From IMG/VR virus record IMGVR_UViG_3300027396_000015: 64,000 bases of DNA; one strand, 5' to 3'. Below are positions 2,261 through 59,919 of this stretch, in pieces. The first letter of the stretch is position 1; every line of letters starts with the position of its first letter. Below the pieces are notes generated by a model. The model did no database searches and had not been told where the DNA came from. It saw nothing but the letters and a program-made list of their open reading frames with translations. A program made the position numbers and the translations under genes. Source of the stretch: an uncultured virus (IMG/VR IMGVR_UViG_3300027396_000015). Lineage: Duplodnaviria > Heunggongvirae > Uroviricota > Caudoviricetes.

Positions 2261-4930
2261 ATGAGTTACGTTGACGCTCTCTTTGACAGAGAGAATGATA
2301 TTATTAAGGTCGTAGAGCGAAACGACCAAGGCGAACGGGTTTTCAAAGAACATCCTGTACGCTACACGTTTTACTATCCGGATCAAAAAGGCAAGTTTAC
2401 TAGCATTTACGGCGATCCGCTGACTAGGGTAGTTTGTAAAAACACCAAAGACTTTCGAAAAGAATTAGCCATTAACAGTGGTAAGGACTTATACGAAAGC
2501 GACATCAATCCAATTTTTGTACATCTAAGCGAAAACTATCTAAATCAAGATGCACCTAATCTAAATATTTGCTTCTTCGACATTGAGGTGGACTTCGATC
2601 CAGAACGCGGCTATAGCACTCCTGAAGATGCGTTTATGCCAATTACTGCTATCACAGTTCACCTAAAATGGTTAGACAAATTAATTACACTGGCTCTTCC
2701 TCCAAAGACATTAACCTTTGCTGAAGCCGAAGCGTTAGTAGCCGATATTCCAGATACACATCTGTTTACTAATGAAGCAGATATGTTGGAAACATTCTTA
2801 GATTTAATTCAAGATGCAGACATTATCACAGGTTGGAACAGCGAAGGCTATGATATTCCTTATACTGTTAACCGTGTGACACAGGTGTTAAGTAAAGAAG
2901 ATACAAGACGTTTCTGTCTATGGAATCAATTTCCTAAACGTAGAGAATATGAAAAGTATGGCAAGACTGCACAAACATATGACTTAATTGGTCGTGTACA
3001 CTTAGACAGTCTAGAACTTTATCGCAAGTTTACCTACGAAGAACGACACACCTATCGATTAGATGCCATCGGTGAAATGGAAATTGGCGAGAACAAAACT
3101 GTTTACGAAGGCACACTTGATCAACTATACAACAATGACTTTAAAAGATTTATTGTGTATAACAGACAAGACGTTGCACTATTAAACAAACTAGATGAAA
3201 AACTTAAATTCATTGACCTTGCTAATAAAATTGCACATGAAAATACTGTATTATTACAGACTACAATGGGTGCTGTGGCTGTTACCGAACAGGCTATTAT
3301 TAACGAAGCGCATCGTAGAGGTTTCCAAGTTCCTAATCGTCCTAAACGAGATGACGATGAAAATACTGCGGCTGCTGGTGCTTATGTAGCACATCCGAAA
3401 GAAGGTCTGCAAGATTGGATTGGATCGCTGGATATTAACAGTCTTTATCCAAGCGCCATTCGTGCGCTTAACATGGGTCCGGAAACTATTGTAGGTCAAT
3501 TACGTCCTACAATGACAGAAGCATTTATCCATGAACAAATGACTCTTAAAAAGAAATCGTTTGCAGGCAGTTGGGAAGGCAAGTTTGGAACTGACGAATA
3601 CGAAGCAGTTATGGCACAACGTAAAGATGTGGAAATTACCATAGACTGGGAAGATGGCAACAGTACTGTACACAGTGGTGCAGAAGTATATAAAGTTATT
3701 TTTGATAGTCATCAGCCTTGGATGCTTTCGGCAAATGGTACAATCTTTACCTACGAAAAGGAAGGTATTATTCCTGGACTGTTAAAGCGTTGGTATGCTG
3801 AACGTAAAGAAATGCAGGCCAAATTAAAAGAATGTATTCAGGCAGGTAACAAGGTCGAAGAAGAGTATTGGGATAAACGTCAGTTAGTTAAAAAGATTAA
3901 CTTGAACAGTTTGTATGGTGCTATTCTTAACCCAGGTTGTAGATTCTTCGATAAACGTATTGGACAGTCAACTACTCTAGTCGGTAGACAAATTGCCAAA
4001 CACATGGCTAGTAAAGTAAATGAAATTATCACAGGTGAATACAATCACGTAGGTAAGGCAGTTATCTATGGTGATACAGACTCTTGTTATTTCAGTGCAT
4101 ATACTACATTAAAGAAAGACATCGAATCTGGAGTTATTCCTTGGACTAAGGAAAACGTTACTGCACTCTATGACCAAATTGGCGAGGAAGTAAACAGTAC
4201 ATTCGTTAAGTTTATGGAGCAGGCATTTCATTGCCCGCCAAGTCGTGGTGATGTTATTCGAGCAGGTCGAGAAATTGTTGCTAGTAAAGGATTGTTTATT
4301 ACTAAGAAACGTTATGCTGTACTTTACTATGATAAAGAAGGCAAACGTGCAGACGTAGATGGTAAACCAGGCAAGATCAAGGCCATGGGCTTAGACTTGA
4401 AGCGCAGTGATACTCCTGCATTTATTCAAGACTTTTTAAGTGATGTACTTGAGAAAGTTCTAACTGGTGCTACAGAAGAACAAGTATTAGATCACATTAC
4501 TCAATTCCGTACAGAGTTTAAGGCCCGTCCTGGTTGGGAGAAAGGTTCTCCTAAGCGAGCCAACAACATTACTGAGTACGAAGCCAAAGAAAAGAAACAG
4601 GGCAAGGCTAATATGCCTGGACACGTTCGTGCAAGTATTAATTGGAATACTCTGCGTCGAATGAATTCGGACAAGTATAGTATGCAGGTCACAGACGGCC
4701 AAAAAGTTATTGTATGTAAACTCAAAGCAAATCCGCTAGGGTACACATCGGTAGCATATCCTGTAGACGAACTACGTTTGCCTAAATGGTTTATGGAACT
4801 TCCATTCGACGATGCAGAAATGGAACAAACTATTATAGATAACAAACTAGAAAACTTAATTGGAGTTCTTAACTGGGATATTAAATCCACAGAAGAAAAG
4901 AACACATTTAATCAACTGTTTGAGTTTTAA
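2261..4930 (+). CDS. Family B DNA polymerase (T4 gp43-like)
   Basis: Exo motifs FDIEV, GWNSEGYDIPY, YNRQDV; pol motifs SLDINSLYPS, KKINLNSLYG, YGDTDS, KKRY. Confidence 0.97.
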   Translation: MSYVDALFDRENDIIKVVERNDQGERVFKEHPVRYTFYYPDQKGKFTSIYGDPLTRVVCKNTKDFRKELAINSGKDLYESDINPIFVHLSENYLNQDAPNLNICFFDIEVDFDPERGYSTPEDAFMPITAITVHLKWLDKLITLALPPKTLTFAEAEALVADIPDTHLFTNEADMLETFLDLIQDADIITGWNSEGYDIPYTVNRVTQVLSKEDTRRFCLWNQFPKRREYEKYGKTAQTYDLIGRVHLDSLELYRKFTYEERHTYRLDAIGEMEIGENKTVYEGTLDQLYNNDFKRFIVYNRQDVALLNKLDEKLKFIDLANKIAHENTVLLQTTMGAVAVTEQAIINEAHRRGFQVPNRPKRDDDENTAAAGAYVAHPKEGLQDWIGSLDINSLYPSAIRALNMGPETIVGQLRPTMTEAFIHEQMTLKKKSFAGSWEGKFGTDEYEAVMAQRKDVEITIDWEDGNSTVHSGAEVYKVIFDSHQPWMLSANGTIFTYEKEGIIPGLLKRWYAERKEMQAKLKECIQAGNKVEEEYWDKRQLVKKINLNSLYGAILNPGCRFFDKRIGQSTTLVGRQIAKHMASKVNEIITGEYNHVGKAVIYGDTDSCYFSAYTTLKKDIESGVIPWTKENVTALYDQIGEEVNSTFVKFMEQAFHCPPSRGDVIRAGREIVASKGLFITKKRYAVLYYDKEGKRADVDGKPGKIKAMGLDLKRSDTPAFIQDFLSDVLEKVLTGATEEQVLDHITQFRTEFKARPGWEKGSPKRANNITEYEAKEKKQGKANMPGHVRASINWNTLRRMNSDKYSMQVTDGQKVIVCKLKANPLGYTSVAYPVDELRLPKWFMELPFDDAEMEQTIIDNKLENLIGVLNWDIKSTEEKNTFNQLFEF

Positions 4931-6075: not shown

Positions 6076-6296
6076 AACTATTTAATTGGAATCGTTACGA
6101 AACAATAACTGAAGGTCCAATGGCTCACGATTATACTAATGCGTCTGTTAGAAAAGAAATATACGAGGCTTATAATAAGCGTTATAAAATTTCAGTAACT
6201 CCCCTGACGCATCCAGAGCATTATGATCCGTTGGATCCTCCGTTAGGCTGGGCTTACGACCCTTACTACGAAATTTGGATACAACTTAATGAATAA
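6072..6296 (+). CDS. Hypothetical protein
   Basis: ATG at 6072 coupled to upstream stop (ATGA); PPLGWAYDPYYEIW motif. Confidence 0.55.
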   Translation: MKLFNWNRYETITEGPMAHDYTNASVRKEIYEAYNKRYKISVTPLTHPEHYDPLDPPLGWAYDPYYEIWIQLNE

Positions 6297-7836
6297 AAAT
6301 TTAACCGCAACACAAAACGACTACGCATACTTTTTGCCGGCAACTAGCGGTTTCTATAGTACCTTTATAGGTAAACAAAGATATGGAAACTATGTTGATC
6401 CGGCAAGAGTTCCTGCTAGTTTTAAAAACGGAGTAGAAAGTCTAAACTACTTAGAACCGGAAAAAGGTGCGTTCTACTATGACCACTGCTTGTATAGTGC
6501 AGGTCATGCTAATCTAGACCTTAACAAAGTTGATCACAGCGAAGATATGTTTCGTAATAGAGATCGCAGTACTAGTTGGGTACTAGGCGACTCCGGTGGT
6601 TTCCAAATTGGTAAAGGTGTATGGGAAGGCGATTGGAAGAATCCCAACTGTCCTAAAGCACAAAAGAAACGTGAACAGGTTCTTAAGTGGATGGATAGTC
6701 TAATGGACTATGGTATGTGTCTTGATATCCCTGCTTGGGTAGCTCGTAGCCCTGCTGGACAAAAAGCCACAGGCATTACTACATACGCAGAAGCAGTTCA
6801 AGGTACTTACATTAACAACGATTGGTTTGTAAACAATCGCAATGGTAATTGTAAATTCTTAAACGTTCTCCAAGGTGAAAATCATACCGATGCAGACGAT
6901 TGGTATGACCGAATGAAGAAGTACTGCGATCCTACTGTCTACGGTGACCGTGCATTTAACGGTTGGGCCATGGGTGGTCAGAATATGTGTGATGTACACT
7001 TGGTATTAAAACGCCTAGTAGCATTACGATTTGACGGATTACTTGAACAGGGCAAACAAGACTGGATGCACTTCTTAGGTACTAGTAAATTAGAGTGGGC
7101 TTGTTTATTAACAGACATTCAACGTGCTGTACGCAAGTATCACAATCCTAACTTTACAATTAGTTTCGACTGTGCTAGTCCATTCTTAGCAACTGCAAAC
7201 GGACAAGTATACGTTCAAACAGAAACACAAGACAGAACTAAGTGGGTATATAGAATGTTACCTAGTATCGATAATAAAAAATATAGTAAAGATACTAGAC
7301 TATTCCGCGATGCAGTAGTACAGGACGGACATTTTAAAAACTTTGACAATAGTCCAATTATTGACGGGGTTCAAATTAAAGATGTTTGTATTTACGGGCC
7401 CGGGGATCTAAACAAGATTGGCAAGGAAGGTAAAACTTCGTGGGATAGTTTTAGTTACGCTATCTTAATGGGCCATAATGTTTGGATGCACATTAATGCT
7501 GTACAAGAAGCCAATCGTCAATACGATTTGGGCATTGTTCCTGCTATGTTAGTAGAAGAACGGTTTGATAGACTATTCTTTAAAGATGTAGTAGAAGCCA
7601 TTTTTGCTACTAGTAGTCGTGCAGAAGCAGACAAAGTCGTTGAAGAGTATAATAAATTTTGGCAAAGTATTATTGGAACTCGCGGAGCAGTAGGTAAGAA
7701 GACTGTAAACGCAAGTACACAATTTGCCAAACTGTTTGACGAAGTAGAGGAAGAGAGTGTACAATTAGAGCACGGTGAAGAATTTACCGATGATGAAATT
7801 GCTAAACTTGACGAACTCGAAGAAGGCGTAAAATGA
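6289..7836 (+). CDS. dpdA: tRNA-guanine transglycosylase-like DNA 7-deazaguanine insertase (DpdA family)
   Basis: TGT hallmark LGDSGGFQ, then MCLDIP, NVLQG, GWAMGG, HFLG, SFDCASP; lies in a cluster with folE/queE. Confidence 0.8.
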   Translation: MNKNLTATQNDYAYFLPATSGFYSTFIGKQRYGNYVDPARVPASFKNGVESLNYLEPEKGAFYYDHCLYSAGHANLDLNKVDHSEDMFRNRDRSTSWVLGDSGGFQIGKGVWEGDWKNPNCPKAQKKREQVLKWMDSLMDYGMCLDIPAWVARSPAGQKATGITTYAEAVQGTYINNDWFVNNRNGNCKFLNVLQGENHTDADDWYDRMKKYCDPTVYGDRAFNGWAMGGQNMCDVHLVLKRLVALRFDGLLEQGKQDWMHFLGTSKLEWACLLTDIQRAVRKYHNPNFTISFDCASPFLATANGQVYVQTETQDRTKWVYRMLPSIDNKKYSKDTRLFRDAVVQDGHFKNFDNSPIIDGVQIKDVCIYGPGDLNKIGKEGKTSWDSFSYAILMGHNVWMHINAVQEANRQYDLGIVPAMLVEERFDRLFFKDVVEAIFATSSRAEADKVVEEYNKFWQSIIGTRGAVGKKTVNASTQFAKLFDEVEEESVQLEHGEEFTDDEIAKLDELEEGVK

Positions 7837-8090
7837 AAAAACTACTAGGCATTGGTGTTTTAGCAGTATTAAGTTTTGGTTTGTTTTATAAAACGGCAGA
7901 TGCCGTGGGTCCAAACGACTACTATCTTGTAATTAAATTTGCAGAAACTGGCAACACCATTGCCCTAGCAGATAAATTCAATGGGCACGAAGCCTGTGTA
8001 TCCTCTCCGGATTATGCGCTACATCAATTAGCGGGCAAACAATCCGGATCTCTTATTAAATGTGTTAACGAACTACCAACATATAGATGA
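7833..8090 (+). CDS. Hypothetical exported protein
   Basis: Signal-peptide-like N-terminus MKKLLGIGVLAVLSFGLFYKTADA; two Cys. Confidence 0.55.
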   Translation: MKKLLGIGVLAVLSFGLFYKTADAVGPNDYYLVIKFAETGNTIALADKFNGHEACVSSPDYALHQLAGKQSGSLIKCVNELPTYR

Positions 8091-8965
8091 AAAGTTTAGT
8101 TGTAGGAATGGGAATAGGACAGTTATATAAATCTGTCCTAACTCAATTAGGTTATGAAGTTTGTACTGTCGATACAGACATTAATAAAAATGCCGACTTC
8201 CCTAGTATAGAACCAGCCATATTACTTCACGGGTCTTTTGACACCGTACATATTTGCACACCAAATTTTACGCATTTAGAATTAGCCGTTAAACTGGCTC
8301 CTATCAGTAAAATTGTCTTTATTGAAAAGCCTGGACTGATTAATAGAAACGAATGGGCTAAATTATGTAAAAGATTTCCACGCACACGATTTATGATGGT
8401 TAAAAATAATATGTGGCGTGACAATATTGCAGAATTACAGGAAAAGGCTAAAGTAGCAAAGAATGTAGACATCGAATGGATTAGAAAGAACTGTATTCCT
8501 AGCCCAGGTAGTTGGTTTACTACACGCAAACTAGCATTTGGCGGAGTTAGTAGGGACTTAATGCCACACTTATTAAGTTTGTATATTGCACTACATCCAG
8601 ACTGGCGCATAGAAAAAGTTAACGGCGAATCATCTATACAATCATGGCTGTTAAAAGATATCGAAAGCACAGAGTATGGTACTGTAAACCCAAATGGAAC
8701 TTATGATGTAGACGACCAGTGTCACATTGGATTTGGTTCTAAATGGAACTGCCGTGCTAACTGGCGCAGTATGACTGTTGAACGTAGTGCTATTACATTT
8801 ATTAATCAAGATAATACCAAAGATGTATTTGAGTTAGGCTGGTGTCCAGAAGAAGCGTACCTAAATATGATTAAAGATGCTGTAGAAAACCTAAATAATG
8901 ACGAGTACTGGAAAGTACAGTTAGAAATTGACCTTTGGATACACGAAAGAATAGAAAAACTATGA
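8087..8965 (+). CDS. Gfo/Idh/MocA family NAD(P)-dependent oxidoreductase
   Basis: VVGMGIG Rossmann motif, ICTPNFTH, FIEKP, GGVSRDLMPH. Confidence 0.85.
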   Translation: MKSLVVGMGIGQLYKSVLTQLGYEVCTVDTDINKNADFPSIEPAILLHGSFDTVHICTPNFTHLELAVKLAPISKIVFIEKPGLINRNEWAKLCKRFPRTRFMMVKNNMWRDNIAELQEKAKVAKNVDIEWIRKNCIPSPGSWFTTRKLAFGGVSRDLMPHLLSLYIALHPDWRIEKVNGESSIQSWLLKDIESTEYGTVNPNGTYDVDDQCHIGFGSKWNCRANWRSMTVERSAITFINQDNTKDVFELGWCPEEAYLNMIKDAVENLNNDEYWKVQLEIDLWIHERIEKL

Positions 8966-9852
8966 CACGCTGTCTACAAACAACTGGACAAGGTTACTTT
9001 GAAGAAGTAGAATATGCAAAGCCAGAACCTACGTCAACTGAAATTGAAGTTAAAGCAGTTATGACTGGTGTATGTCGCAGTGACATAGATATGATGCAGG
9101 GCAACTTTGGACCTTTACCACTACACATGCAAGGTCACGAAGGTCTAGGAATCGTAACTAAAGTCGGTGCCAGTGTATTAGGTGTTAAAGTAGGCGATTA
9201 TGTTGCTACCCGCGGCGAACCAGCATACGCAGATTATTACAACTGTCGTGACGGTGAGTTTGTAACAGTTTTAGAACTACATCCACGTTACATTTTAGAA
9301 CCAGTGGCCTGTGGTGTTAACTGTATTAGACAAGCGTATACTCTTTTTGAACGTAGACAAAATGGTAAATGCTTAATCCTAGGTAGTGGTTTCCTTGCAT
9401 GGGTAGTTTTTAATAACCTGGCACATCATTTTCCAGAACTTGAAGTAGATGTACTAGGTTCTAGTAATCAGGAACTTTGGGGAGATGCGTTACTGTTAGG
9501 TACTACCGACAGTTACGATTTGATAGTAGATTTATCTGGAAAATATCAACTAGGTACCGACATTAATCTAAATAACAATGCAGTAATCATTGATGCTGTT
9601 GGTAAAGCAGTAAGTAAAGAAGAAGCACAACAACAACTTTGGAAGGCTGTTACTACAGTTAAACCAAGTCCAAGAACAGAAGAATTTATTGGTGCTATGT
9701 TTGAAGCACGTTGGATGATTGAAAACGGTAAACTAGAGGTTGATTCTTTCTGGACAAAAGGTTATAATCGTAACACAGAATGGCAACAAGCATTTGCGGA
9801 TGGTGTGGATCGTCCAAATGGTTATAGCAGAGGTTATATTAAATGGGATTAA
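8962..9852 (+). CDS. Zn-dependent medium-chain (GroES-like) dehydrogenase
   Basis: GVCRSD, GHEGLG, VKVGDYV, LEPVAC, ILGSGFLA; no 4-Cys structural Zn lobe; start coupled ATGA at 8962. Confidence 0.85.
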   Translation: MTRCLQTTGQGYFEEVEYAKPEPTSTEIEVKAVMTGVCRSDIDMMQGNFGPLPLHMQGHEGLGIVTKVGASVLGVKVGDYVATRGEPAYADYYNCRDGEFVTVLELHPRYILEPVACGVNCIRQAYTLFERRQNGKCLILGSGFLAWVVFNNLAHHFPELEVDVLGSSNQELWGDALLLGTTDSYDLIVDLSGKYQLGTDINLNNNAVIIDAVGKAVSKEEAQQQLWKAVTTVKPSPRTEEFIGAMFEARWMIENGKLEVDSFWTKGYNRNTEWQQAFADGVDRPNGYSRGYIKWD

Positions 9853-10382
9853 ACACTGAAGAAAGACAAGACATTGTCTACTTTACAGGCTACGAAGTCG
9901 AACATACTATTTGCTATGGTATGTATACACTATTTGTAGTAGGCACTCCTCCGCTAGAAGAAATACTACGTATTGCTGGTGACACACAAGCATACTTAGA
10001 CGAAAACAAACGCATTAAACAAATTTACTTTGGCACTAGTCAAAGTTTTAATCCTAAAAGTATTTCACACGAAGAATACAAAGCATGGGACGAAGTTATT
10101 ATAGGCTGTCTAAAAGCAGGCTATTGGGTAGCTCTAGACTTTGGTGTTGAACACATCGAAGGCGTACTAGAGTCTGCTTATAACGAATATCCCAAGTTTG
10201 TACCTATGATTAGTGTCAAGTTACCCTACATTAATCAACTCAACTACAATGCCACACTCAAACTGGATGACCGAACTTGGGGTGCTACAAATCCAGGTGT
10301 GTGGACACATCATTTACAAAGCCTAATGACTAAAGACAAGTATACTCATTGGGATTTGTACACTCAAGATACACCAACATGA
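9843..10382 (+). CDS. Hypothetical protein within the deazaguanine cluster
   Basis: 179 aa ORF overlapping both neighbours; motifs GYEVEHT, TLFVVG, NPGVW. Confidence 0.7.
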   Translation: MGLNTEERQDIVYFTGYEVEHTICYGMYTLFVVGTPPLEEILRIAGDTQAYLDENKRIKQIYFGTSQSFNPKSISHEEYKAWDEVIIGCLKAGYWVALDFGVEHIEGVLESAYNEYPKFVPMISVKLPYINQLNYNATLKLDDRTWGATNPGVWTHHLQSLMTKDKYTHWDLYTQDTPT

Positions 10383-10774
10383 TTATCAAACAAGACATTA
10401 GACCAAACAAAATGATCTGGGTAACTTTCCGCAAAGAAGGTATCCATAAGTATCCTGCGGCACTAACAGATCCTAATCTAGCAACAGGAGACGAATATGA
10501 CGTATCGTTTTTGGGTCACCCTCATCGCCACATCTTTCATTTCAGGGTGTGGATCAGTGTGCAACACAATGACAGGGACATCGAATTCATCCAATTCAAA
10601 CGATGGCTCGAGTCGTTGTATAATGGTCAAGGTGCCACTATAAGCCTTGACTACAAGAGTTGTGAAATGATGTCTGACGAATTACATGACATCATTAGCA
10701 AGAAGTATCCAAATCGCGAGATTTGGATTGAGGTCTCCGAAGACGGAGAAAATGGTTCATTCATCAAATACTAA
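10379..10774 (+). CDS. QueD-like T-fold protein (DpdL-like CDG decarboxylase or divergent QueD)
   Basis: EGIH, FLGHPHRHIFHF (LxxxHRHxF), DIEF, SCEM, EVSEDGENG: His-rich metal site and T-fold tail like PTPS/QueD. Confidence 0.7.
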   Translation: MIIKQDIRPNKMIWVTFRKEGIHKYPAALTDPNLATGDEYDVSFLGHPHRHIFHFRVWISVQHNDRDIEFIQFKRWLESLYNGQGATISLDYKSCEMMSDELHDIISKKYPNREIWIEVSEDGENGSFIKY

Positions 10775-10782
10775 AGGAAACA

Positions 10783-11016
10783 ATGATGAAAAAAGAAGTC
10801 GTTCAAATTTTTGACGATCTTGACAATCTGCTAGATTTTTGCAGATTCAACCTTCTGCCTTACAATGAGGCAGACTTGTATAACCGCCAAAGTAAAACTT
10901 GGCAGGCTTACGAGGCGTCTAAGCGTCCTCGTCGTTATAACAACGACAGACGATTTGAAAATCGTCCCCGTAATAACAACGGGTACAATAACAACTACAG
11001 GAATGGTCGCCAATGA
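10783..11016 (+). CDS. Hypothetical protein with Arg/Asn-rich tail
   Basis: SD AAGGA; C-terminal RPRRYNNDRRFENRPRNNNGYNNNYRNGRQ. Confidence 0.65.
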   Translation: MMKKEVVQIFDDLDNLLDFCRFNLLPYNEADLYNRQSKTWQAYEASKRPRRYNNDRRFENRPRNNNGYNNNYRNGRQ

Positions 11017-12086
11017 CCGTCTACTTAGTAGACCTTGAGCCGGTAGAAACACGCTATACAGCGCAGTGGAAGACCCACCTACCGGCTATCCTGAGAAAGA
11101 GAGGACACGATGTTCAAGTTTTATCTGGGCCTACGGATATTCCTTCAGCCACTACTCCTGGTGCTTTTCTTAATTTTGGTGGCACCAATATATACAAGTC
11201 TGCTCAAGTTGAGCAAATGGGTAGGTTGTTTTGCGCCGGATCAGTGGCTCCTAATGATCACTTCATCTTTACTGATGCTTGGCACCCTGGTATCATCAAC
11301 CTAAAGTATATGAGTGAACTGTTACAGATTCCTGTAACTATTCACGCACTATGGCATGCCGGTAGTTACGATCCACAGGACTTTTTAGGTCGTCTAATTG
11401 GCGATGCTCCTTGGGTCAGAAATGCTGAAAAGAGTTTCTTTCATGCTATAGATCATAACTACTTTGCTACAACATTCCATATTGAAATGTTTTGTCATAA
11501 TCTTTTAAACATAGATTACGATACTGCAAAAGCATCATATATCGATAAAGGAAAAATTGTACGCACAGGTTGGCCAATGGAGTATATGGAAGATACATTA
11601 ACTCCATATAAAGGGATGAAAAAACGTGATTTAATTCTTTTCCCTCATCGCATCGCACCCGAGAAGCAAGTTGAAATTTTTAGAGATTTAAAAGAACACT
11701 TGCCACAGTACGAGTTCGTAGTCTGTCAGGATCAACAACTAACAAAAAATGAATATCATAACTTGTTAGGCGAATCGAAATTAGTGTTCTCTGCAAACTT
11801 ACAAGAGACATTAGGGATTAGTTGGTATGAAGGCGCTGTTGTAGATGCTATTCCTATGGTGCCAGATAGACTTAGTTACAGTGAAATGGGCTATGATACT
11901 TTTAAGTATCCTAGTGAATGGACTGAAAGTTTCGAAGCATATAAAGCACACCGTCCAGAAATATGTGCAAAGATTATCCAGTATATGGATAACTATGAAA
12001 AGTTTTTACCACAACTTAGAAAACAAACTCAAGACTTAACTGAAAATTTCTTTTCTGCAAATGGACTCTTAGAAAGACTTGTATGA
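11013..12086 (+). CDS. GT-B fold glycosyltransferase (GT4-like)
   Basis: FPHRIAPEKQ, LVFSANLQETLGISWYEG (E-x7-E motif), PMVPDRLSYSE. Confidence 0.82.
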   Translation: MTVYLVDLEPVETRYTAQWKTHLPAILRKRGHDVQVLSGPTDIPSATTPGAFLNFGGTNIYKSAQVEQMGRLFCAGSVAPNDHFIFTDAWHPGIINLKYMSELLQIPVTIHALWHAGSYDPQDFLGRLIGDAPWVRNAEKSFFHAIDHNYFATTFHIEMFCHNLLNIDYDTAKASYIDKGKIVRTGWPMEYMEDTLTPYKGMKKRDLILFPHRIAPEKQVEIFRDLKEHLPQYEFVVCQDQQLTKNEYHNLLGESKLVFSANLQETLGISWYEGAVVDAIPMVPDRLSYSEMGYDTFKYPSEWTESFEAYKAHRPEICAKIIQYMDNYEKFLPQLRKQTQDLTENFFSANGLLERLV

Positions 12087-12538
12087 TATTAAAACTGTTA
12101 GAACGTCTCGGTCGCAAGCGTATTATTATGGATCGTACCTGTGACGAGCCGTTACTTACACGTTATTATCTATTTTTAAAGGATCGTAAATGGTTTCCAT
12201 TTAATGTATTCTTACACAAGTTTCATAAAGGTGATCCAGATGATGTGCATGATCACCCATGGCCTTATGCCACACTTATTCTAAAAGGTGGCTATTGGGA
12301 ATGGATTCCTCAATTTAACAGCCAGGGAGTAAAGGTCTGTGAAATTGCCAAATGGAGAAAGCCTGGACACTTTAGAATTTGTAGTGCCAACAGTTTTCAT
12401 AGAATTGAAATTGATCCCAACGTAGAGTGTTGGACACTTTTTATGCCAGGTCCGCAAAAGAGAGAATGGGGATTTCTCGTTAATAATAAATGGATACCAA
12501 ATGAGCTATACTTACAATCACGGAAGCGTAATACTTAA
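12083..12538 (+). CDS. Cupin-fold protein
   Basis: HKFHKGDPDDVHDHPW...LKGGYWE...FHRIE...WTLF: cupin metal motifs. Confidence 0.7.
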   Translation: MILKLLERLGRKRIIMDRTCDEPLLTRYYLFLKDRKWFPFNVFLHKFHKGDPDDVHDHPWPYATLILKGGYWEWIPQFNSQGVKVCEIAKWRKPGHFRICSANSFHRIEIDPNVECWTLFMPGPQKREWGFLVNNKWIPNELYLQSRKRNT

Positions 12539-12953
12539 TACAGCCGGCGGCATAGCAGGTTCCGGTGCCGGTTCAGGTAGTGTTTTAGTATCGAACGGCA
12601 CAGGCGGCTCTGGCAGTGGATATACGATTTCAACCGGAGCCGGCACTACATCTGTGCCGTTAACTTATACTACAGGTACAAATGTAACTTGGGCTAATCC
12701 TACTACCAATCCGGTGATGGTTGCCAAAAACGATCCACCGGAGTTAGAAGTTAAAGGTCGAATGGTATTAAATGGTGTTGACCTAGAAGAAAGGTTAAAC
12801 ACAATTGAAAAAGTCTTGCAAATTCCCGAGCGAGATGTTAAACTAGAAAAGAAGCATCCAAAGTTAAAAAAGATGTATGATGACTATATTAAGGCATTAG
12901 CCAAATATAGAACGTGGGACGCAATTAAAGGAGATGATGATGGAACTACATGA
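12501..12953 (+). CDS. Hypothetical protein, Gly/Ser/Thr-rich N-terminus and helical C-terminus
   Basis: 150 aa ORF in the operon. Confidence 0.6.
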   Translation: MSYTYNHGSVILNTAGGIAGSGAGSGSVLVSNGTGGSGSGYTISTGAGTTSVPLTYTTGTNVTWANPTTNPVMVAKNDPPELEVKGRMVLNGVDLEERLNTIEKVLQIPERDVKLEKKHPKLKKMYDDYIKALAKYRTWDAIKGDDDGTT

Positions 12954-13170
12954 ATCAGTTAGAGATACTTATAAAGAAATGGTTGTCAAAGAACACGCCG
13001 GTTTTAGGCTAACATTAAAGAAACACGAAGTACTAAGCCCTAAAGGTTTGTTTAGTATCGATATGGTTCAAGAAAGTCTTAAAGACGGTGAAGTTGTTGG
13101 TACACAAACTTATAATTTCTTTATGACTAAAGAAGAATGTCAATCATTGGCCTATGGGTTAACTGCATGA
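12934..13170 (+). CDS. Hypothetical protein
   Basis: SD AAGGAG upstream; exact ATG among three tandem Met codons uncertain. Confidence 0.65.
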   Translation: MMMELHESVRDTYKEMVVKEHAGFRLTLKKHEVLSPKGLFSIDMVQESLKDGEVVGTQTYNFFMTKEECQSLAYGLTA

Positions 13171-13718
13171 AGAAAGTATACTACAGTTGGTCACAAGTTG
13201 AAGGCGCATGTTTAGAAATTGCTCGCCAAATGTCTGAACATAATTGGAGGCCTGACTATATTGTAGGTATTACACGCGGTGGTCTTGTTCCGGCTAACTT
13301 ACTAAGTCAATATACTGGCATTAAGATGCACACACTTAATGTCAGCCTTCGCGATAATAAAAACGATTGCGAAAGTAATCTTTGGATGGCCGAAGATGCC
13401 TTGGGAGTTGTTCCCAATGACGAAAGGCACATTTGGGGCGATCACAAACATTTAGAACGTCTTAAAAAGAAAATCTTAATTGTAGACGATATTAACGATC
13501 AAGGATCTACTCTTAATTGGATTAAGAAAGATTGGCCCAGTGGTTGTTTTCCTAACGATGAAGCATGGAATCAAGTATGGGGAGACAATGTTCGTTTTGC
13601 TGTATTAACACATAATTACGGCAGTGAGTTTAAAGATCCAGACTATCATGTTTGGACCGTAGACAAGCGACAAGAAGATTGTTGGCTTGTTTATCCTTGG
13701 GAAGAATTTTGGTTATGA
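13167..13718 (+). CDS. Type I purine phosphoribosyltransferase (Gpt/XGPRT-like)
   Basis: VGITRGGLVPA, PRPP-binding loop ILIVDDINDQGSTL, terminal VYPWE. Confidence 0.88.
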   Translation: MKKVYYSWSQVEGACLEIARQMSEHNWRPDYIVGITRGGLVPANLLSQYTGIKMHTLNVSLRDNKNDCESNLWMAEDALGVVPNDERHIWGDHKHLERLKKKILIVDDINDQGSTLNWIKKDWPSGCFPNDEAWNQVWGDNVRFAVLTHNYGSEFKDPDYHVWTVDKRQEDCWLVYPWEEFWL

Positions 13719-14098
13719 CTGATTTAGAAAGGGCACTAGATGAACGCAGAGCACCATGGACTAGTATCGAGTACAGAACAAAAGACTATTGGGTCTTCAA
13801 CGATGCCTACCCAGTTACGGAAGGACATTTGCTTTTTGTGCCAACCTATGAACGTTTTACCAACATCGTCGAATGTTTCAAAGGAGCATACAAGTTCGGG
13901 TTCGATGGTGTCCAATCTGAACGTTGGGACGCTTTTAATGTCGGACAAAACTGTGGCGAGACTGCTGGCCAAACAGTAATGTATCCTCATATACACATGA
14001 TCCCTAGACGCAAGGGTGATATGGAAGACCCTCGTGGCGGGGTTCGTCACGTTATACCAAGTAAAGGAAATTATAAAAATGCAAGTAAGAGTACCTGA
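13715..14098 (+). CDS. HIT family nucleotide hydrolase
   Basis: DAYPVTEGHLLFVP, FNVGQNCGETAGQTVMYPHIHMIPRRKGD. Confidence 0.88.
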   Translation: MTDLERALDERRAPWTSIEYRTKDYWVFNDAYPVTEGHLLFVPTYERFTNIVECFKGAYKFGFDGVQSERWDAFNVGQNCGETAGQTVMYPHIHMIPRRKGDMEDPRGGVRHVIPSKGNYKNASKST

Positions 14099-14279
14099 AG
14101 AAGGAAAGAAAATTGGAACTTGCGGTTGTGGTCGTAGTCCTACAGGAGACTGTATCGGCTGGCACGGATTAAGCGAAGAAGTATTTCGTGAAAAATTAGC
14201 CGTGTGGGAATTAGAAGACTATAAGCGCAGAGCACAAGAACTTTGGAATGATAGTTGCACCAGTGGAAGATCAGAATAA
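14079..14279 (+). CDS. CDGSH-like [2Fe-2S] small protein
   Basis: CGCGRSPTGDCIGWH matches the C-x-C-x2-S...C-x-G-x-H spacing of CDGSH domains. Confidence 0.6.
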   Translation: MQVRVPEEGKKIGTCGCGRSPTGDCIGWHGLSEEVFREKLAVWELEDYKRRAQELWNDSCTSGRSE

Positions 14280-14481
14280 TATCTACGTCCATTGGGACGG
14301 GCAATCAGGTTTTTGGTGGAATGAAACTTGCGCCATGGTGCTCGAAGTATTTGGCCTACCTGGCGGAAGATACGAAAGTCATCCACAACACGACTACATG
14401 AAATTTACATTCAAATCAAAAAAGGATGCTGACTTATGTCGGATACTATTATCGGAAAGATTACAGCCGCAGTCGCTTTAA
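14248..14481 (+). CDS. Hypothetical protein
   Basis: 77 aa; WNETCAMVLEVFGLPGGRY...F.FKS..DA..C pattern. Confidence 0.6.
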   Translation: MIVAPVEDQNNIYVHWDGQSGFWWNETCAMVLEVFGLPGGRYESHPQHDYMKFTFKSKKDADLCRILLSERLQPQSL

Positions 14482-14648
14482 TAGCGGCTGTGCTTATTCT
14501 TATTTTTACCGATTACGGTAGTCAAACTCGCATCTATGATTGCGGGATGGCAGAATGGCATCCTGATATCCCTAATACAGTCAGGGAAGAATGCCGTAGA
14601 TTACGATATGAACAACAACATATTGATAAGAAAAGTATACGCACTTAG
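14436..14648 (+). CDS. Hypothetical membrane-anchored protein
   Basis: N-terminal TM segment, YDCGMAEWHPDIP..VREECR motif; SD AAGGA. Confidence 0.55.
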   Translation: MSDTIIGKITAAVALIAAVLILIFTDYGSQTRIYDCGMAEWHPDIPNTVREECRRLRYEQQHIDKKSIRT

Positions 14649-14677
14649 TTGACAAAAACCTAAATAAACTATATTAT
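14649..14677 (+). promoter_or_regulatory. sigma70 promoter for folE block with internal TAAATA
   Basis: TTGACA(14649)-17-TATTAT(14672); CCTAAATA in spacer. Confidence 0.7.
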
Positions 14678-14714
14678 ATTACATAGACATCCTCGTCTAT
14701 AACTCGGAGAAATA

Positions 14715-15413
14715 ATGTCAGAAAAAAATTTAGCACAAGCGATTCGCGAAAAGATGGTCCTAGACGGAAAAAGATTCTGGGCAGGAGATAACATCAGCGA
14801 ATACATCGAATCTGATCTAGTCAAAGAACAACTAATCAAAGAAGCAACTGAGGCATTTGAAAGTGTTTTAGACAAACTTCTTATTGACAGAGAGACAGAT
14901 CCTAACTCGCACGGTACAGCGAAACGATTAGCAAAAATGTACTTTAACGAAATAATGGCAGGAAGATATGAACCAGCACCAGATGCAACAGCGTTTCCTA
15001 ACGATAGCGAAGATCGTTATGAGGGTATGTTGGTGGTTAGGAGTGAGCTTCGTAGTATGTGTAGTCATCATCATCAGCCTGTTTCTGGTGTTGCCTACAT
15101 CGGAATCATCGCCGCCCAAAAACTCATTGGGCTGTCAAAATACACACGAATCGCGCAATGGTGCGCTCGTCGTGGTACCTTACAGGAAGAATTGTGTAAC
15201 GACATAGCCAGAGAAATTGAAAAGGCCACTGGCGCAAGTGATATTGGCGTTTATATTCAGGCAGTTCATGGATGCTGTGAGAATCGTGGCATTATGGCAC
15301 ATAGTTCATTAACTCAAACTACTGTACTTAAAGGTGCGTTCAAAGACGATGCTGGTACAAAGAAAGAGTTCTTTGATAACATTAAACTACAACAGGAGTT
15401 TGCACCAAGATGA
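14715..15413 (+). CDS. folE: GTP cyclohydrolase I
   Basis: TAKRLAKMY, SMCSHHHQP, IGLSKYTRI, RRGTLQEEL, HGCCENRG. Confidence 0.95.
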   Translation: MSEKNLAQAIREKMVLDGKRFWAGDNISEYIESDLVKEQLIKEATEAFESVLDKLLIDRETDPNSHGTAKRLAKMYFNEIMAGRYEPAPDATAFPNDSEDRYEGMLVVRSELRSMCSHHHQPVSGVAYIGIIAAQKLIGLSKYTRIAQWCARRGTLQEELCNDIAREIEKATGASDIGVYIQAVHGCCENRGIMAHSSLTQTTVLKGAFKDDAGTKKEFFDNIKLQQEFAPR

Positions 15414-15625
15414 ATTCAGTAGACATGGCGACTAATTTAATTAATAGAGCAAAAAATCTACACAAGTATATTGTAGAGACAGATGTTCCCGAAGATTTTC
15501 GATTTAACGGAACTGTTCCGTTTGATATACAAATCAAAGACAATGTTATCAGTGCAGAAGTATATGGTATCGATTTCAATGATGCTGTAAATATTCTTGA
15601 TAAATGGTTGGAGACATGCAAATGA
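15410..15625 (+). CDS. Hypothetical protein
   Basis: 71 aa, ATGA-coupled. Confidence 0.6.
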   Translation: MNSVDMATNLINRAKNLHKYIVETDVPEDFRFNGTVPFDIQIKDNVISAEVYGIDFNDAVNILDKWLETCK

Positions 15626-15942
15626 ATTTTGTCGATAAATGGTTGTATGGAAAAGTCCGCGATATGTGGGATAATCGACACAAGTACGAAGAAGCAACTA
15701 TGAAAGAAAGAGAGTATAAATTGGCAATCGGAACAGCACAAGCAATAGAACGCGGTCGTGCAGAAGGTGAAGGACGAATCACTTTCGAATTAAGCACCGC
15801 CGTCGGTGGTAAAATTTTAAATGTAAGACACTACGATGACCGTAAAGATAGACACGAAAGTCAAACTTATGTGATTCCTAACGGAGAAGATATTGGCGAG
15901 CGTGTTGCTAAAATTATTAACTTAGAGATGTTCAAACAATGA
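15622..15942 (+). CDS. Hypothetical protein
   Basis: ATG 15622 coupled to upstream stop. Confidence 0.6.
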   Translation: MNFVDKWLYGKVRDMWDNRHKYEEATMKEREYKLAIGTAQAIERGRAEGEGRITFELSTAVGGKILNVRHYDDRKDRHESQTYVIPNGEDIGERVAKIINLEMFKQ

Positions 15943-16403
15943 AATTAGAGCAACCAGCAGAAGGAATTCTAAAACGCAGTGACTTTGGCGACACTAAGTT
16001 TTATCAAATTGTCTGCGGTTGCGGGCAAGAGTATCACGATCACAATGTAGAAGTTGAATCTAGTGAGACTGGTATTAATGTAAACATTTACGCAACTGCT
16101 AAAACTGATTATTGGTCTGAACTAGTTGAAAAAAGATACGATATTGATAGTCCGTATCTACAAGAGATTGATTGGTTTGTTAAAGATTTAATTAATGGGC
16201 TATGGACTCGTTTGAAAGTAACTTGGCAACTTTGGACAACTGGTGCAGTGACCGTTGAAACAACTATTTCTATGACTGAACAACAGGCACTGAATTATGC
16301 CGAAACATTGAAATCTGCAATTAAAGATGTTAAACTGTTTAGACAAGCAGGTAAAGAAAAATCAAGCGCCAGTAAACTGGCAGAACAAGGTGACTGTATA
16401 TGA
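15939..16403 (+). CDS. Hypothetical protein (CxC..H motif)
   Basis: 154 aa, YQIVCGCGQEYHDH; ATGA-coupled. Confidence 0.65.
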   Translation: MKLEQPAEGILKRSDFGDTKFYQIVCGCGQEYHDHNVEVESSETGINVNIYATAKTDYWSELVEKRYDIDSPYLQEIDWFVKDLINGLWTRLKVTWQLWTTGAVTVETTISMTEQQALNYAETLKSAIKDVKLFRQAGKEKSSASKLAEQGDCI

Positions 16404-17263
16404 GCAAATTAAAAATTGCAGAATTATTTTATAGTATTCAAGGCGAAGGACGTTACATGGGTGTACCGTCTGTTTTCTTGAGAACATTTGGTTGTAACTT
16501 TAAATGTGCTGGCTTTGGATTACCAAAAGGTGAACTAAGTACAGAAGTTGAAGATATTGCAATCCAACATGAACGAACCCCATATAAAAAATATGAAGAA
16601 CTTCCTTTGGTATCTACGGGCTGTGATAGTTATGCTAGTTGGGATCCTCGCTTTAAGGATCTTAGTCCAATGCTCACTTCAGACGCCATCGCAGACAGGA
16701 TCGCAGAGATTCTACCCTTCAACGAATGGCGAGACGAACACTTGGTCATTACCGGAGGGGAACCTTTGCTTGGATGGCAACGAGCGTATCCAGACTTGCT
16801 CGACCATCCAAAAATGACAAACTTAAAAGAGATTACATTTGAAACGAATGGTACTCAAAAACTCACCGACGAGTTCAAGCAATATCTGCACACATGGAAA
16901 TATCACAGCGATAAAGATTTTTGGCGAGAAGTTACATTTAGTGTTAGTGCTAAATTAAGTTGCTCCGGTGAAGAACGTCACGAAGCAATTCGTCCAGACG
17001 TAGTTTGTGAATACGAAGAATACGGTCATACATATCTTAAATTTGTAGTGGCCACAGAAGAAGATGCGGAGGAAGCAATTGAAACTGCTGACATTTATAG
17101 AGAAAATGGTTTTACCGGTCCTATATATCTTATGCCCGTGGGTGGCGTTGAAAGTGTCTATACTCTTAACAACAGGCGTGTAGCGGAACTAGCAATGAAA
17201 AACGGTTTACGCTACAGCGATAGATTACAAGTTCCACTCTTTAAAAATGAGTGGGGAACATAA
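16400..17263 (+). CDS. queE: 7-carboxy-7-deazaguanine synthase (radical SAM)
   Basis: ELFYSIQGEG, VFLRTFGCNFKC...GCDS, VITGGEPLL, FETNGT, YLMP, RYSDRLQ. Confidence 0.9.
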   Translation: MSKLKIAELFYSIQGEGRYMGVPSVFLRTFGCNFKCAGFGLPKGELSTEVEDIAIQHERTPYKKYEELPLVSTGCDSYASWDPRFKDLSPMLTSDAIADRIAEILPFNEWRDEHLVITGGEPLLGWQRAYPDLLDHPKMTNLKEITFETNGTQKLTDEFKQYLHTWKYHSDKDFWREVTFSVSAKLSCSGEERHEAIRPDVVCEYEEYGHTYLKFVVATEEDAEEAIETADIYRENGFTGPIYLMPVGGVESVYTLNNRRVAELAMKNGLRYSDRLQVPLFKNEWGT

Positions 17264-17947
17264 ATGGAAGATATAAAGTTATCCGATTTAATTTTTGTTG
17301 TTAGAAACGCATTAACAGAAGACCAATGCAATTCGTTAATTGACGAATACGAATTGCGTTCTGCCAGTGCGGTTCAAGAAAGTTGCATACACGCCGTAAC
17401 TAATAAAATGACTACTTCTACTTTTAAAAGAGTAGAGTTAATTCCTGATACAGAAAACTTTTTAGTAGTACATAATCATACAAATAAAATTATCGAAGAT
17501 TGGATAACATATCTAGAAGAGTTTAAAGCGTTTCACACTACAGCATTAAAAAAATCTTTAAGATTTTCCCACATGCACCGACTTATGAAATACGAAGTCG
17601 GCGAATGGATACATCCTCATGTGGATTGGGAGGAAATGATTCACGCCAGTTGTACTATTTCATTAAATGACGACTATGAAGGTGGCGAATTTACTTTTTG
17701 GAATGGCAGATACGAAGTTAAATTGAATAAAGGAGATGCTATGATTTTTCCAGCAGATCCTCTTTGGGTACACGAAGTTAAACCAATAACTAAAGGTGTT
17801 CGTTATAGTACAAATACTTTTATTCAATCGTTGCCACTAAATGAAAGAAATACAATGGGCAGTATTATTTGGGATATGGGGCAAAACGAAAACGCATTTT
17901 TTTATCCGCAATCGCGGGTATGGGGGAAACATGAAAGCAATTATTAA
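17264..17947 (+). CDS. 2OG-Fe(II) oxygenase (prolyl-hydroxylase-like)
   Basis: HPHVD (HxD), SLNDDYEGGEF, MIFP, HEVKPITKGVRYS. Confidence 0.88.
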   Translation: MEDIKLSDLIFVVRNALTEDQCNSLIDEYELRSASAVQESCIHAVTNKMTTSTFKRVELIPDTENFLVVHNHTNKIIEDWITYLEEFKAFHTTALKKSLRFSHMHRLMKYEVGEWIHPHVDWEEMIHASCTISLNDDYEGGEFTFWNGRYEVKLNKGDAMIFPADPLWVHEVKPITKGVRYSTNTFIQSLPLNERNTMGSIIWDMGQNENAFFYPQSRVWGKHESNY

Positions 17948-32888: not shown

Positions 32889-32896
32889 TATTTATC
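32889..32896 (-). promoter_or_regulatory. T4-like late promoter box
   Basis: GATAAATA overlapping the stop of the giant gene. Confidence 0.55.
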
Positions 32897-59904: not shown

Positions 59905-59919
59905 CTGGTATATATGTGC

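Follow-up and report, generated by a model that had tools for sequence, protein, structure and literature searches.

A DpdL-Type Deazaguanine DNA-Modification Module with a Candidate Glycosylation Arm in a T4-Like River Jumbo Phage

Introduction

Phage and bacterial systems that place 7-deazaguanines in DNA form the background to a gene cluster that we have analyzed in a 64,000-nucleotide stretch (hereafter the window) of an uncultured virus, IMG/VR record IMGVR_UViG_3300027396_000015. The cluster, at positions 6,289 to 17,947, encodes a DpdA-like transglycosylase, enzymes of deazaguanine synthesis, and a glycosyltransferase (GT) of the GT4 type. It was singled out by a reading of the sequence without database searches (the original prediction) as a QueC-less 7-deazaguanine cluster whose dehydrogenases and GT might decorate the base. 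The nearest described relative is the DpdL/DpdA3 system of phage phiST (PMC10516641), which shares FolE, QueD, QueE, a DpdL protein with the motif LxxxHRHxF, a transglycosylase of the tRNA-guanine transglycosylase (TGT) superfamily, and a QueC-independent route. Table 1 of that report lists deoxyguanosine in phiST DNA as fully replaced by 2′-deoxy-7-deazaguanosine (dDG; 302,000 per 10^6 nt). DpdL, for which the phiST and ACP17 proteins were named, is the proposed 7-carboxy-7-deazaguanine (CDG) decarboxylase of the dDG pathway and is defined by LxxxHRHxF in place of CxxxHGH (Cui, Hutinet et al. 2023, PMC10516641). The phiST system differs in its short DpdA3 of 259 amino acids (aa), only weakly related to the 515-aa protein described here, and in having neither a GT4 nor X179, the 179-aa protein discussed below. 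Compared with phiST, the source genome adds the GT4, X179, an oxidoreductase of the Gfo/Idh/MocA family (Gfo), a zinc-dependent medium-chain dehydrogenase/reductase (MDR), a cupin, a phosphoribosyltransferase (PRTase), and a QueC-family gene.

The bacterial Dpd system (DpdA/DpdB/DpdC), as outlined in PMC10164549, likewise uses a TGT-family enzyme to insert a deazaguanine in DNA. Another likeness is that bacterial homologues of the present module are embedded in mobile islands with defence genes around them; in contrast to Dpd, no DpdB or DpdC was seen, the GT4 is the accessory partner, and the DpdA-like protein is without conserved zinc-site cysteines. The α- and β-glucosyltransferases of phage T4 offer a likeness in working only: they are GT-B enzymes that move a sugar from a host nucleoside diphosphate (NDP) sugar onto a non-canonical base and so counter restriction. 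The base of the source phage, by contrast, would be a purine analogue without a hydroxymethyl handle, and the enzyme here is GT4-like with an EX7E motif. To our knowledge, all sugar-bearing DNA bases are pyrimidines (glucosyl-hydroxymethylcytosine [glucosyl-hmC], base J, and arabinosyl-hmC). In the literature outside subscription journals we found no report of a glycosylated 7-deazaguanine, in line with the original prediction that none had been characterized; a 2026 review of jumbo phages, in its passage on the subject, mentions predicted deazaguanine incorporation only, and the word “glycosylated” in one passage of the deazaguanine literature refers to the cytosines of T-even phages.

Two cultured phages that share the GT serve as comparisons. 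Pseudomonas jumbo phage PA5oct (Wroclawvirus) has the DpdA-like protein (33% identity), the GT4 (41%), and DpdL (54%), and Acidovorax phage ACP17 has the GT (36%) and DpdL (57%). PA5oct is syntenic with the window from PolB to an ATPase gene (PolB, a structural protein, DpdA-like ... QueE, RNase H). Neither phage has the Gfo and MDR pair or the cupin in the stretches compared, and the genes in question are annotated as hypothetical; X179 lies inside the cluster in ACP17 and elsewhere in the genome in PA5oct. As described in the relevant part of PMC12191111, PA5oct DNA resists several enzymes that act at G-containing sites and is cut by nucleases that sense modified G, from which a modified G was inferred.

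Here we report that the cluster belongs to a known kind, that its GT arm is widely conserved and unpublished, and that the source phage carries an extra, putative sugar-redox cassette. The module is very probably a deazaguanine DNA-modification system. We advance the fuller reading tentatively, stopping just short of calling it probable: the T4-like river jumbo phage has a DpdL-type module for deazaguanine in DNA, into which a glycosylation arm is built.

A Core of Four Genes

The window is the minus strand of G000:C1:105459-169458, within the 270,181-bp IMG/VR virus record (CheckV completeness 71%), and near-identical DNA occurs in contigs from 24 riverine metagenome runs. A Pfam scan covered the window open reading frames (ORFs) and 200 of the 206 ORF calls beyond it (two border-spanning and four very long ORFs were omitted); Gp23 capsid, Gp20 portal, sheath, baseplate, PolB, clamp loader, dihydrofolate reductase, and ThyA mark the source genome as that of a T4-like jumbo phage. 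Every ORF named in the original prediction is present, all on the plus strand. Four of them carry the argument:

6289..7836, plus strand: DpdA-like protein, putative DNA-guanine transglycosylase, TGT-fold TIM barrel, 515 aa (fold and motifs)
9843..10382, plus strand: X179, 179 aa, here of the TSQSF subtype; conserved, in no known family
10379..10774, plus strand (longest ORF from TTG 10349): DpdL, a QueD-like protein of predicted T-fold and proposed CDG decarboxylase (LxxxHRHxF, homology)
11013..12086, plus strand: GT4-type retaining glycosyltransferase, GT-B fold, 357 aa (AlphaFold2 [AF2] fold, EX7E)

ATGA start/stop overlaps link genes at 7833, 8087, 8962, 10379, 11013, 12083, and 13715, and they indicate likely true starts for the MDR gene (8962), the T-fold gene (10379), and a HIT-family gene (13715). 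The predicted translational coupling downstream of the transglycosylase gene is therefore real, with the amendment that an 85-aa ORF, absent from the prediction, lies between the DpdA-like and Gfo genes.

For comparison we used 80 viral loci (DpdA identity 64–90%), searched with the window proteins by tblastn (E ≤ 1e-5, coverage at least 40%); 52 of them have at least 3 kb downstream of dpdA, and 28 at least 10 kb. DpdL was found in 51 of the 52 loci, the GT4 and X179 in 50 each, a 77-aa basic protein in 42, the PRTase and FolE in 35 each, QueE in 27, the cupin in 26, the HIT protein in 21, Gfo and MDR in 12 each, and a 2-oxoglutarate (2OG)-Fe(II) oxygenase in none. The corresponding counts in the 28 longer loci are 28 each for GT4, DpdL, and X179, 27 for FolE, 25 each for the PRTase and the small basic protein, 24 for QueE, 17 for the cupin, 16 for the HIT protein, and 4 each for Gfo and MDR. 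The DpdA-like protein, X179, DpdL, and the GT4 thus form a fixed core, together in 28/28 loci with 10 kb downstream. The expectation that GT and dehydrogenases would accompany dpdA holds for the GT, which is also found in PA5oct, Phosso, and ACP17; the dehydrogenases are optional. The original description of a 7-deazaguanine DNA-modification cluster with a genuine built-in GT stands. A megablast search of phage records with the 11.7-kb cluster matched nothing. The gene set is very common at the protein level, with at least 7,900 DpdA-like clusters and at least 8,000 GT clusters at 90% identity.

The Putative Transglycosylase

The DpdA-like protein carries the motif VLGDSGGFQ. It matches nothing in Pfam (including the TGT family PF01702), PHROGs, or NCBIfam, and Pfam TGT is matched by 2 of 41 relatives, at E 0.011. 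Against PDB sequences, a single-sequence search returned nothing and a profile search chance matches only, with no TGT. The AF2 model, with a predicted local distance difference test score (pLDDT) of 88.7, identifies the fold: the best 50 Foldseek matches in the PDB are all TGTs (top E 2.7e-7), and VIA gives Z 18.0 with TGT 2ash (309 of 361 residues aligned, root-mean-square deviation [rmsd] 4.6) and Z 17.8 with ArcTGT 1j2b. What had been named DpdA/TGT-like from its DSGGFQ motif is therefore of TGT fold. Viral fold matches include phage TGT/DpdA proteins; phiST DpdA3 (M4SLA5) is a weaker match, at rank 19 (E 3.2e-4), and hhalign relates it to the window protein with a probability of 74.6% (E 2.7e-5) over 82 columns only, the two proteins being 259 and 515 aa long.

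A search for relatives gave 1000 representatives at E ≤ 1e-3, of which 41 were aligned. D101, S102, G104, D146, and D294 are invariant in these 41 sequences, with G103 and Q106 conserved to 90% or more; the nucleophile Asp was judged from residue order only. TGT enzymes have a Cys3-His zinc site. In the alignment of 41 sequences no cysteine reaches 90% conservation, so the TGT-type zinc site is not kept in this family.

DpdL and the Supply of the Base

The original prediction described the T-fold protein as having a QueD fold. It is indeed QueD-like, and it is not QueD: its motif L-G-H-P-H-R-H-I-F is the DpdL signature, with H59, R60, H61, and F63 invariant in 31 sequences, and the catalytic cysteine of QueD and of 6-pyruvoyltetrahydropterin synthase (PTPS) is absent. 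The resemblance to DpdL of ACP17 reaches E 4e-36 by tblastn, phiST CGPG_00067 is 34% identical (E 5e-9), and the motifs SCE and EDxxN are common to all six DpdL sequences aligned. A DpdL profile gave chance matches only against PDB sequences.

Two further enzymes of base synthesis lie downstream, both as first named:

14715..15413, plus strand: FolE, GTP cyclohydrolase I (Pfam 132.6 bits; NCBIfam 134.5 bits against a 202-bit equivalog cut-off)
16400..17263, plus strand: QueE, CDG synthase of the radical S-adenosylmethionine type (PHROG 2076, E 2.1e-54)

QueE scores 40–50 bits with the NCBIfam QueE models, below their cut-offs, and is 30% identical to the annotated CDG synthase of PA5oct. A canonical QueD (95.7 bits) is encoded about 40 kb outside the window, at G000:C1:209559-210116.

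Pfam models for QueC, QueF, and TGT match nothing within the window, as had been claimed for QueC and QueF, and there is no ArcS or Gat-QueC call in the window, for neither of which a dedicated model was used. At the scale of the genome the claim that the phage is QueC-less fails. In addition to the true QueD, a 199-aa QueC-family gene is present about 68 kb past the other end of the window, among structural genes (G000:C1:36756-37355). QueC proteins are distinguished by a PP-loop, SGGxDS, and a C-terminal four-cysteine cluster; the 199-aa protein has YSGGLDS at residues 13–19 and C171, C184, C187, and C190. It scores 28 bits with Pfam QueC (cut-off 22), aligned only over profile positions 155–201, the last quarter of the model; it fails NCBIfam TIGR00364 (21 bits versus a cut-off of 150.3) and matches no PDB sequence. 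Most of its 921 metagenome relatives are labelled QueC, and it was not found in PA5oct or ACP17. The source genome also has a stand-alone class-I glutamine amidotransferase gene (G000:C1:1155-1802). The genome is, in sum, not strictly QueC-less.

The module itself appears not to depend on this gene. A complete relative (G006; 372 kb, terminal repeats, DpdA-like protein 68% identical) has QueD and no QueC-family match; it keeps the module without QueC, and the module therefore appears to work without QueC, as the DpdL route predicts. More widely, a QueC-like gene is found in 0 of 5 large DpdA-bearing contigs (one a complete genome) and a DpdA-like gene in 2 of 5 large QueC-like contigs, most of these contigs being fragments, so that only the complete genome is informative. 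The QueC-independent pathway branch that was proposed at CDG/7-deazaguanine is not a new one, for it is the DpdL route to dDG (PMC10516641).

The Glycosyltransferase

The GT has no match to Pfam Glycos_transf_1 or Glyco_transf_4 at E ≤ 1, and a single-sequence search of the PDB found nothing; Glycos_transf_1 is weakly matched by 17 of 36 relatives (best E 2.9e-4). Its AF2 model (pLDDT 91.1) matches the GT-B fold over residues 1–357, with VIA scores of Z 22–24.8 against GT4 enzymes: 24.8 for sucrose-phosphate synthase 6kih, 24.1 for BshA 3mbo (rmsd 2.7, 297 residues aligned), and 23.7 for MshA. The glutamate pair of retaining GT4 enzymes is the EX7E motif, here E265 and E273, invariant in 36 GT sequences and reading ETLGISWYE in the window protein. 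Fold and motif together suggest an intact enzyme rather than a relic, and the GT4-like assignment of the original prediction holds. An identity as a queuosine mannosyltransferase (QTMAN/GTDC1) is unsupported: QTMAN_N (PF12038) matches 0 of 36 relatives at E ≤ 1 and nothing in the whole genome at E ≤ 10. The isoelectric point was uninformative as a sign of DNA binding (5.69 for the GT, 5.44 for the DpdA-like protein). A predicted complex of the GT with residues 1–460 of the DpdA-like protein scored 0.00, which is no answer and speaks neither way on binding.

The fold ranking raises one account in which DNA plays no part, namely a pterin-glycoside pathway that runs through FolE, a PTPS-like enzyme, reduction, and a glucosyltransferase like that of tetrahydrobiopterin (BGluT), as in cyanobacterial biopterin glucoside synthesis. 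FolE and a PTPS-like T-fold protein are present, the operon holds two reductases, and Foldseek places the tetrahydrobiopterin glucosyltransferases 5zes and 9v0l at ranks 31–48 for the GT (E ~1e-7). BGluT is, however, far down the fold ranking, the T-fold protein has the DpdL signature without the QueD/PTPS catalytic cysteine, and the reductases are missing from 40 of the 52 related loci. What constantly accompanies the GT is no pterin enzyme; it is a TGT-fold enzyme, joined in bacteria by a YhhQ-like transporter. We regard this account as very improbable.

A Putative Sugar-Redox Cassette

Between the DpdA-like gene and X179 lie two dehydrogenase genes, each of the family originally named:

8087..8965, plus strand: Gfo/Idh/MocA oxidoreductase, optional, with a suggested role in sugar tailoring (Pfam GFO_IDH_MocA 25.8 bits, cut-off 24)
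8962..9852, plus strand (longest ORF from TTG 8935): Zn-MDR dehydrogenase (Pfam ADH_N 46.4 bits; M10 invariant; ATGA overlap with the Gfo stop)

A 13-sequence Gfo profile finds DgpA (PDB 7xr9), a C-glycoside 3-oxidoreductase of gut bacteria, as its best match in the PDB (E 1.8e-12, positions 42–239), followed by levoglucosan, glucuronide-3, inositol, sugar, and glycoside dehydrogenases. Nearly all of the 60 PDB sequences matched are Gfo/Idh/MocA proteins; a few are NAD-binding proteins of Ktr/YuaA potassium uptake, at E 1e-4 and weaker. DgpA, which oxidizes the 3-OH of a sugar already attached to its aglycone, is thus the best solved relative of Gfo, by a remote sequence link, and the likeness to glycoside and sugar 3-dehydrogenases fits sugar tailoring. 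Where DgpA has DgpB/C lyase subunits as its partners, Gfo here has a Zn-dehydrogenase and X179. The MDR profile matches the catalytic N-terminal domain of Zn-alcohol dehydrogenases only (best E 1.6e-11), and in the related loci MDR is always accompanied by Gfo (12/52).

X179, described at the outset as a 179-aa protein of no family, remains one: neither the single sequence nor a profile matches Pfam, PHROGs, NCBIfam, or the PDB (the PDB profile search gave chance matches only), its clusters in the ESM Atlas are unnamed, and a member-by-member Pfam scan of 39 sequences found nothing consistent. With phiST CGPG_00066 its hhalign probability is 0.6%. The form of X179 follows the dehydrogenases. 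All 11 loci with Gfo and MDR have the G-TSQS form, and all 59 without them have the AN(H/Q)S or AIQS forms. Mapped on a 71-row DpdA tree, the presence of Gfo and MDR changes state 8 times, with at least 3 changes forced by strongly supported branches; shuffled states gave a mean of 11.3 changes, and 1 of 500 shuffles was equally low. The subtype match and the tree together suggest that Gfo, MDR, and the matched X179 move as one cassette.

Linkage in Cultured Phages and Bacterial Islands

Records of cultured phages contain DpdL in 28 cases, the GT in 23, and both in 18. The 18 comprise 11 of the PA5oct group, Phosso, 2 ACP17 records, Xanthomonas phages BUDD and X1, Synechococcus phage BUCT-ZZ01, and Burkholderia phage BCSR5; the 5 GT matches without DpdL are weak (65% coverage, 24.8% identity). 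The GT and DpdL genes are adjacent in PA5oct, Phosso, ACP17, and BUCT-ZZ01. In ACP17, QueD, FolE, X179, DpdA-like, GT4, DpdL, and QueE fall within 5.4 kb (hhalign 96% for the DpdA-like protein and 98.8% for X179), and in Phosso the DpdA-like gene is about 170 kb from the adjacent GT/DpdL pair.

The pairing extends to bacteria. Among genome contigs, a DpdA-like gene lies about 2 kb or less from the GT in 25 of 36 GT loci, and DpdL is present in 24; isolates with GT and DpdA-like genes include Pelagibacterium, Devosia, Azospirillum, Ochrobactrum, Methylobacterium, Aurantimonas, Shimia, Magnetospirillum, and Sulfitobacter. Twenty of the loci, mostly of Alphaproteobacteria, are in chromosomes or large contigs. 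The islands carry integrases or resolvases and GmrSD, ABC-3C, HEPN, and AbiEii-like genes. Eight of the 20 have a gene for a Vut_1/YhhQ-like transporter directly beside the GT, upstream of the GT4/DpdA-like pair (e.g., L109:7902-8402, 31.9 bits; L118:9492-9995, 24.7 bits, below the cut-off). The YhhQ family imports the queuosine precursors preQ0 and preQ1. Seven loci (L106-L111 and L125) keep the GT and the DpdA-like gene with no DpdL seen. That the GT sits beside a DpdA-like gene and a YhhQ-like transporter ties it to the transglycosylase and to deazapurine supply rather than to pterin metabolism, and by their gene content the islands look like a salvage-fed bacterial version of the system.

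A Proposed Pathway and Its Weight

We propose the following sequence of events. By homology, GTP would be converted to CDG by FolE, QueE, and the QueD that lies outside the window, and DpdL would strip the carboxyl group to give 7-deazaguanine, as the literature proposes; besides homology, the dDG of phiST DNA speaks for this chain. The TGT-fold DpdA-like enzyme would exchange guanine for 7-deazaguanine in phage DNA after replication, where the deazaguanine would block restriction at G-containing sites, and the PRTase probably recycles the released guanine to GMP and hence to GTP. The GT4 may attach to the deazaguanine a sugar taken from a host NDP-sugar, with DNA or the not yet inserted free base as its acceptor. 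Gfo, the Zn-dehydrogenase, and the matched X179 could convert either this sugar or the donor by way of a 3-keto intermediate, perhaps to an epimer, with X179 predicted to be the protein that meets the sugar.

That the final DNA base bears a sugar we hold to be possible rather than probable; gene linkage and an intact GT are what speak for it. With somewhat more reserve, we suggest that the river clade, PA5oct, Phosso, ACP17, and the bacterial islands all put a glycosylated 7-deazaguanine in DNA by means of a long TGT-fold transglycosylase and a GT4, with the cassette re-tailoring the sugar in the source phage.

Several considerations weigh against a sugar on the base. To begin with, C7 of 7-deazaguanine presents neither a hydroxyl nor an amine as an obvious handle, and the related loci contain no conserved hydroxylase (2OG oxygenase 0/52, cupin 26/52); the idea that a hydroxyl or hydroxymethyl handle is made first and then receives the sugar is not borne out, no candidate enzyme for it being present. 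The closest solved folds of the GT (BshA, MshA, sucrose-phosphate synthase, and glycogen synthase) act on small molecules or glycans, and neither a DNA-acting enzyme nor a T4 glucosyltransferase chain is among the best 50 matches in either of the two GT fold listings. Ten of the 28 DpdL records are without the GT (5 of the phiST group, RHph_I1_18, Ahp1, Bakedbeans, D479, and MA9V-3), and phiST, which has neither a GT nor X179, still makes plain dDG, from which it follows that the GT is not needed for the base itself. The phages that carry the GT are known here from their genes, and the related loci are kin, so that the co-occurrence counts reflect conservation and not independent events. With a QueC-family gene in the genome, the base could also be 7-amido-7-deazaguanine (ADG) or preQ0 rather than 7-deazaguanine; divergent QueC homologues, “QueC*,” are proposed as ADG synthases in the pertinent passage of PMC10516641. 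The same report did not obtain DpdL decarboxylase activity in E. coli, where dpdL plus dpdA gave no dDG, and suggested that further enzymes might take part. GT and X179 are the obvious candidates for these, and their absence may be the reason for the failure of dpdL plus dpdA.

These points bear directly on the simplest alternative, in which the final base is a plain, known deazaguanine (dDG by way of DpdL, or dADG or dPreQ0 by way of the QueC-family gene) and the GT4, X179, Gfo, and MDR serve protein, envelope, or metabolite glycosylation, sharing the operon for early or middle timing. The full replacement in phiST listed in Table 1 of its report, the DpdL phages without a GT, the solved folds nearest to the GT, and the want of an evident acceptor atom on 7-deazaguanine all agree with it. 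So does the presence of GT25 and GT8 genes in the genome, since non-DNA glycosylation then occurs in this phage. Against it, the GT stays by DpdL, the DpdA-like gene, or both across T4-like river phages, PA5oct, Phosso, ACP17, a cyanophage, and Xanthomonas and Burkholderia phages, and the same pairing recurs in compact bacterial islands, where nothing else but the YhhQ-like transporter recurs with it. An adjacency that is kept in bacteria needs more than common timing to account for it. We think the plain base unlikely, though of the alternatives it deserves the most serious attention.

A further case, which we hold improbable, is that the GT4 acts on the free base or a precursor. The resulting deazapurine glycoside, handled by X179, would then be either a soluble product or a short-lived carrier or protected form that loses its sugar before or at insertion. 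Small-molecule GT4 enzymes are the nearest folds (BshA, acting on malate; MshA, on inositol phosphate; LmbT, on ergothioneine; and the tetrahydrobiopterin glucosyltransferase 5zes), the E. coli result invites a missing step, and the GT of Phosso adjoins DpdL at a distance from the DpdA-like gene. The bacterial cassettes that pair the GT with a DpdA-like gene and no visible DpdL argue the other way, phiST-type systems do not need such a step, and no glycosidase is conserved in the module.

If the proposal of a sugar on the DNA base is correct, DNA hypermodification would gain a new class in the glycosylated deazapurine, the first sugar-bearing purine in a genome, and the long TGT-fold transglycosylase with a GT4 would be a previously unrecognized pairing. 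The sugar on this base would then differ from one related phage to another, much as T-even phages vary the glucosylation of hmC. Such a modification would bear on host range, restriction escape, and nucleases that sense modified DNA, and enzymatic DNA labelling would gain new tools in the GT, X179, and the DgpA-like oxidoreductase. The practical side is touched by PA5oct, which, as PMC13282480 indicates, has been studied against P. aeruginosa infection. Taken as a whole, the original interpretation is partly supported, and the observation behind it partly confirmed.

Other Genes in the Window and Genome

The remaining features of the cluster are these:

7833..8090, plus strand: 85-aa signal-peptide-like ORF, joined by ATGA overlaps to the dpdA-like gene on one side and the Gfo gene on the other
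10783..11016, plus strand: 77-aa protein with a basic Asn/Arg-rich tail, isoelectric point 9.66, between dpdL and the GT gene and in the same place in 42/52 loci
12083..12538, plus strand: small metal-type cupin, HxH...H (phrog_4786, E 4.6e-35; H56, H58, and H106 invariant)
13137..13718, plus strand: purine PRTase, xanthine/guanine PRTase-like (Pfam Pribosyltran 50.2 bits; NCBIfam xanthine PRTase 47.5, below cut-off)
13715..14098, plus strand: HIT-family nucleotide hydrolase/transferase (Pfam HIT 32.8 bits; ATGA overlap with the PRTase stop)
17264..17947, plus strand: 2OG-Fe(II) oxygenase (Pfam 2OG-FeII_Oxy_3 45.2 bits), outside the conserved module (0/52)

The cupin, PRTase, HIT protein, and oxygenase are thus of the families first assigned to them. 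The 85-aa ORF is found by tblastn in only 2 of the 80 related loci (L021 and L037) and is probably a lineage-specific insert outside the system. For the 77-aa protein, composition suggests a nucleic-acid-binding role. The cupin is a frequent neighbour rather than a fixed one (26/52); a role as a sugar ketoisomerase was considered and dropped, its profile having given only weak PDB matches to Cupin_2/TM1459 (E 0.24–0.5). In the interval between cupin and PRTase lies a 150-aa ORF (window 12501-12953, plus strand) with a Gly/Ser/Thr-rich N-terminal half, a charged C-terminal half, and no family match.

Pfam 2OG-Fe(II) oxygenase families are matched by about 10 further ORFs of the genome. Some 8 such genes, with a DUF6445 gene (see also L006:13584-19241 and L007:9991-11877), surround four tandem genes for flavin-dependent tryptophan halogenases (G000:C1:54255-60267, or L007:3255-9267; Pfam Trp_halogenase 294–353 bits each). 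An island for halogenation and oxidation of this kind is unusual for a phage.

Elsewhere in the window, positions 32892-46976 on the minus strand hold a single 4694-aa ORF with no Pfam match, which adjoins a 1143-aa ORF and tail-collar, tail-fibre, and baseplate genes and is probably a giant fibre or structural protein. The phage also encodes, by Pfam scan, a group of proteins more familiar from cells:

L016:14008-16059, L016:9082-9393, and L011:14051-17595, outside the window: CHASE2-sensor adenylate/guanylate cyclase, chlamydial-type Hc1 histone-like protein, and a chaperone and protease group (ClpB, DnaJ, Cpn10, and two ClpP)

Finally, PolB of PA5oct (L002:7608-12834) is split by a homing-endonuclease gene, whereas PolB in the window (2261-4930) is a single 889-aa ORF; the window has a homing endonuclease of its own, of the SegE-type GIY-YIG kind, at 59914-60363.

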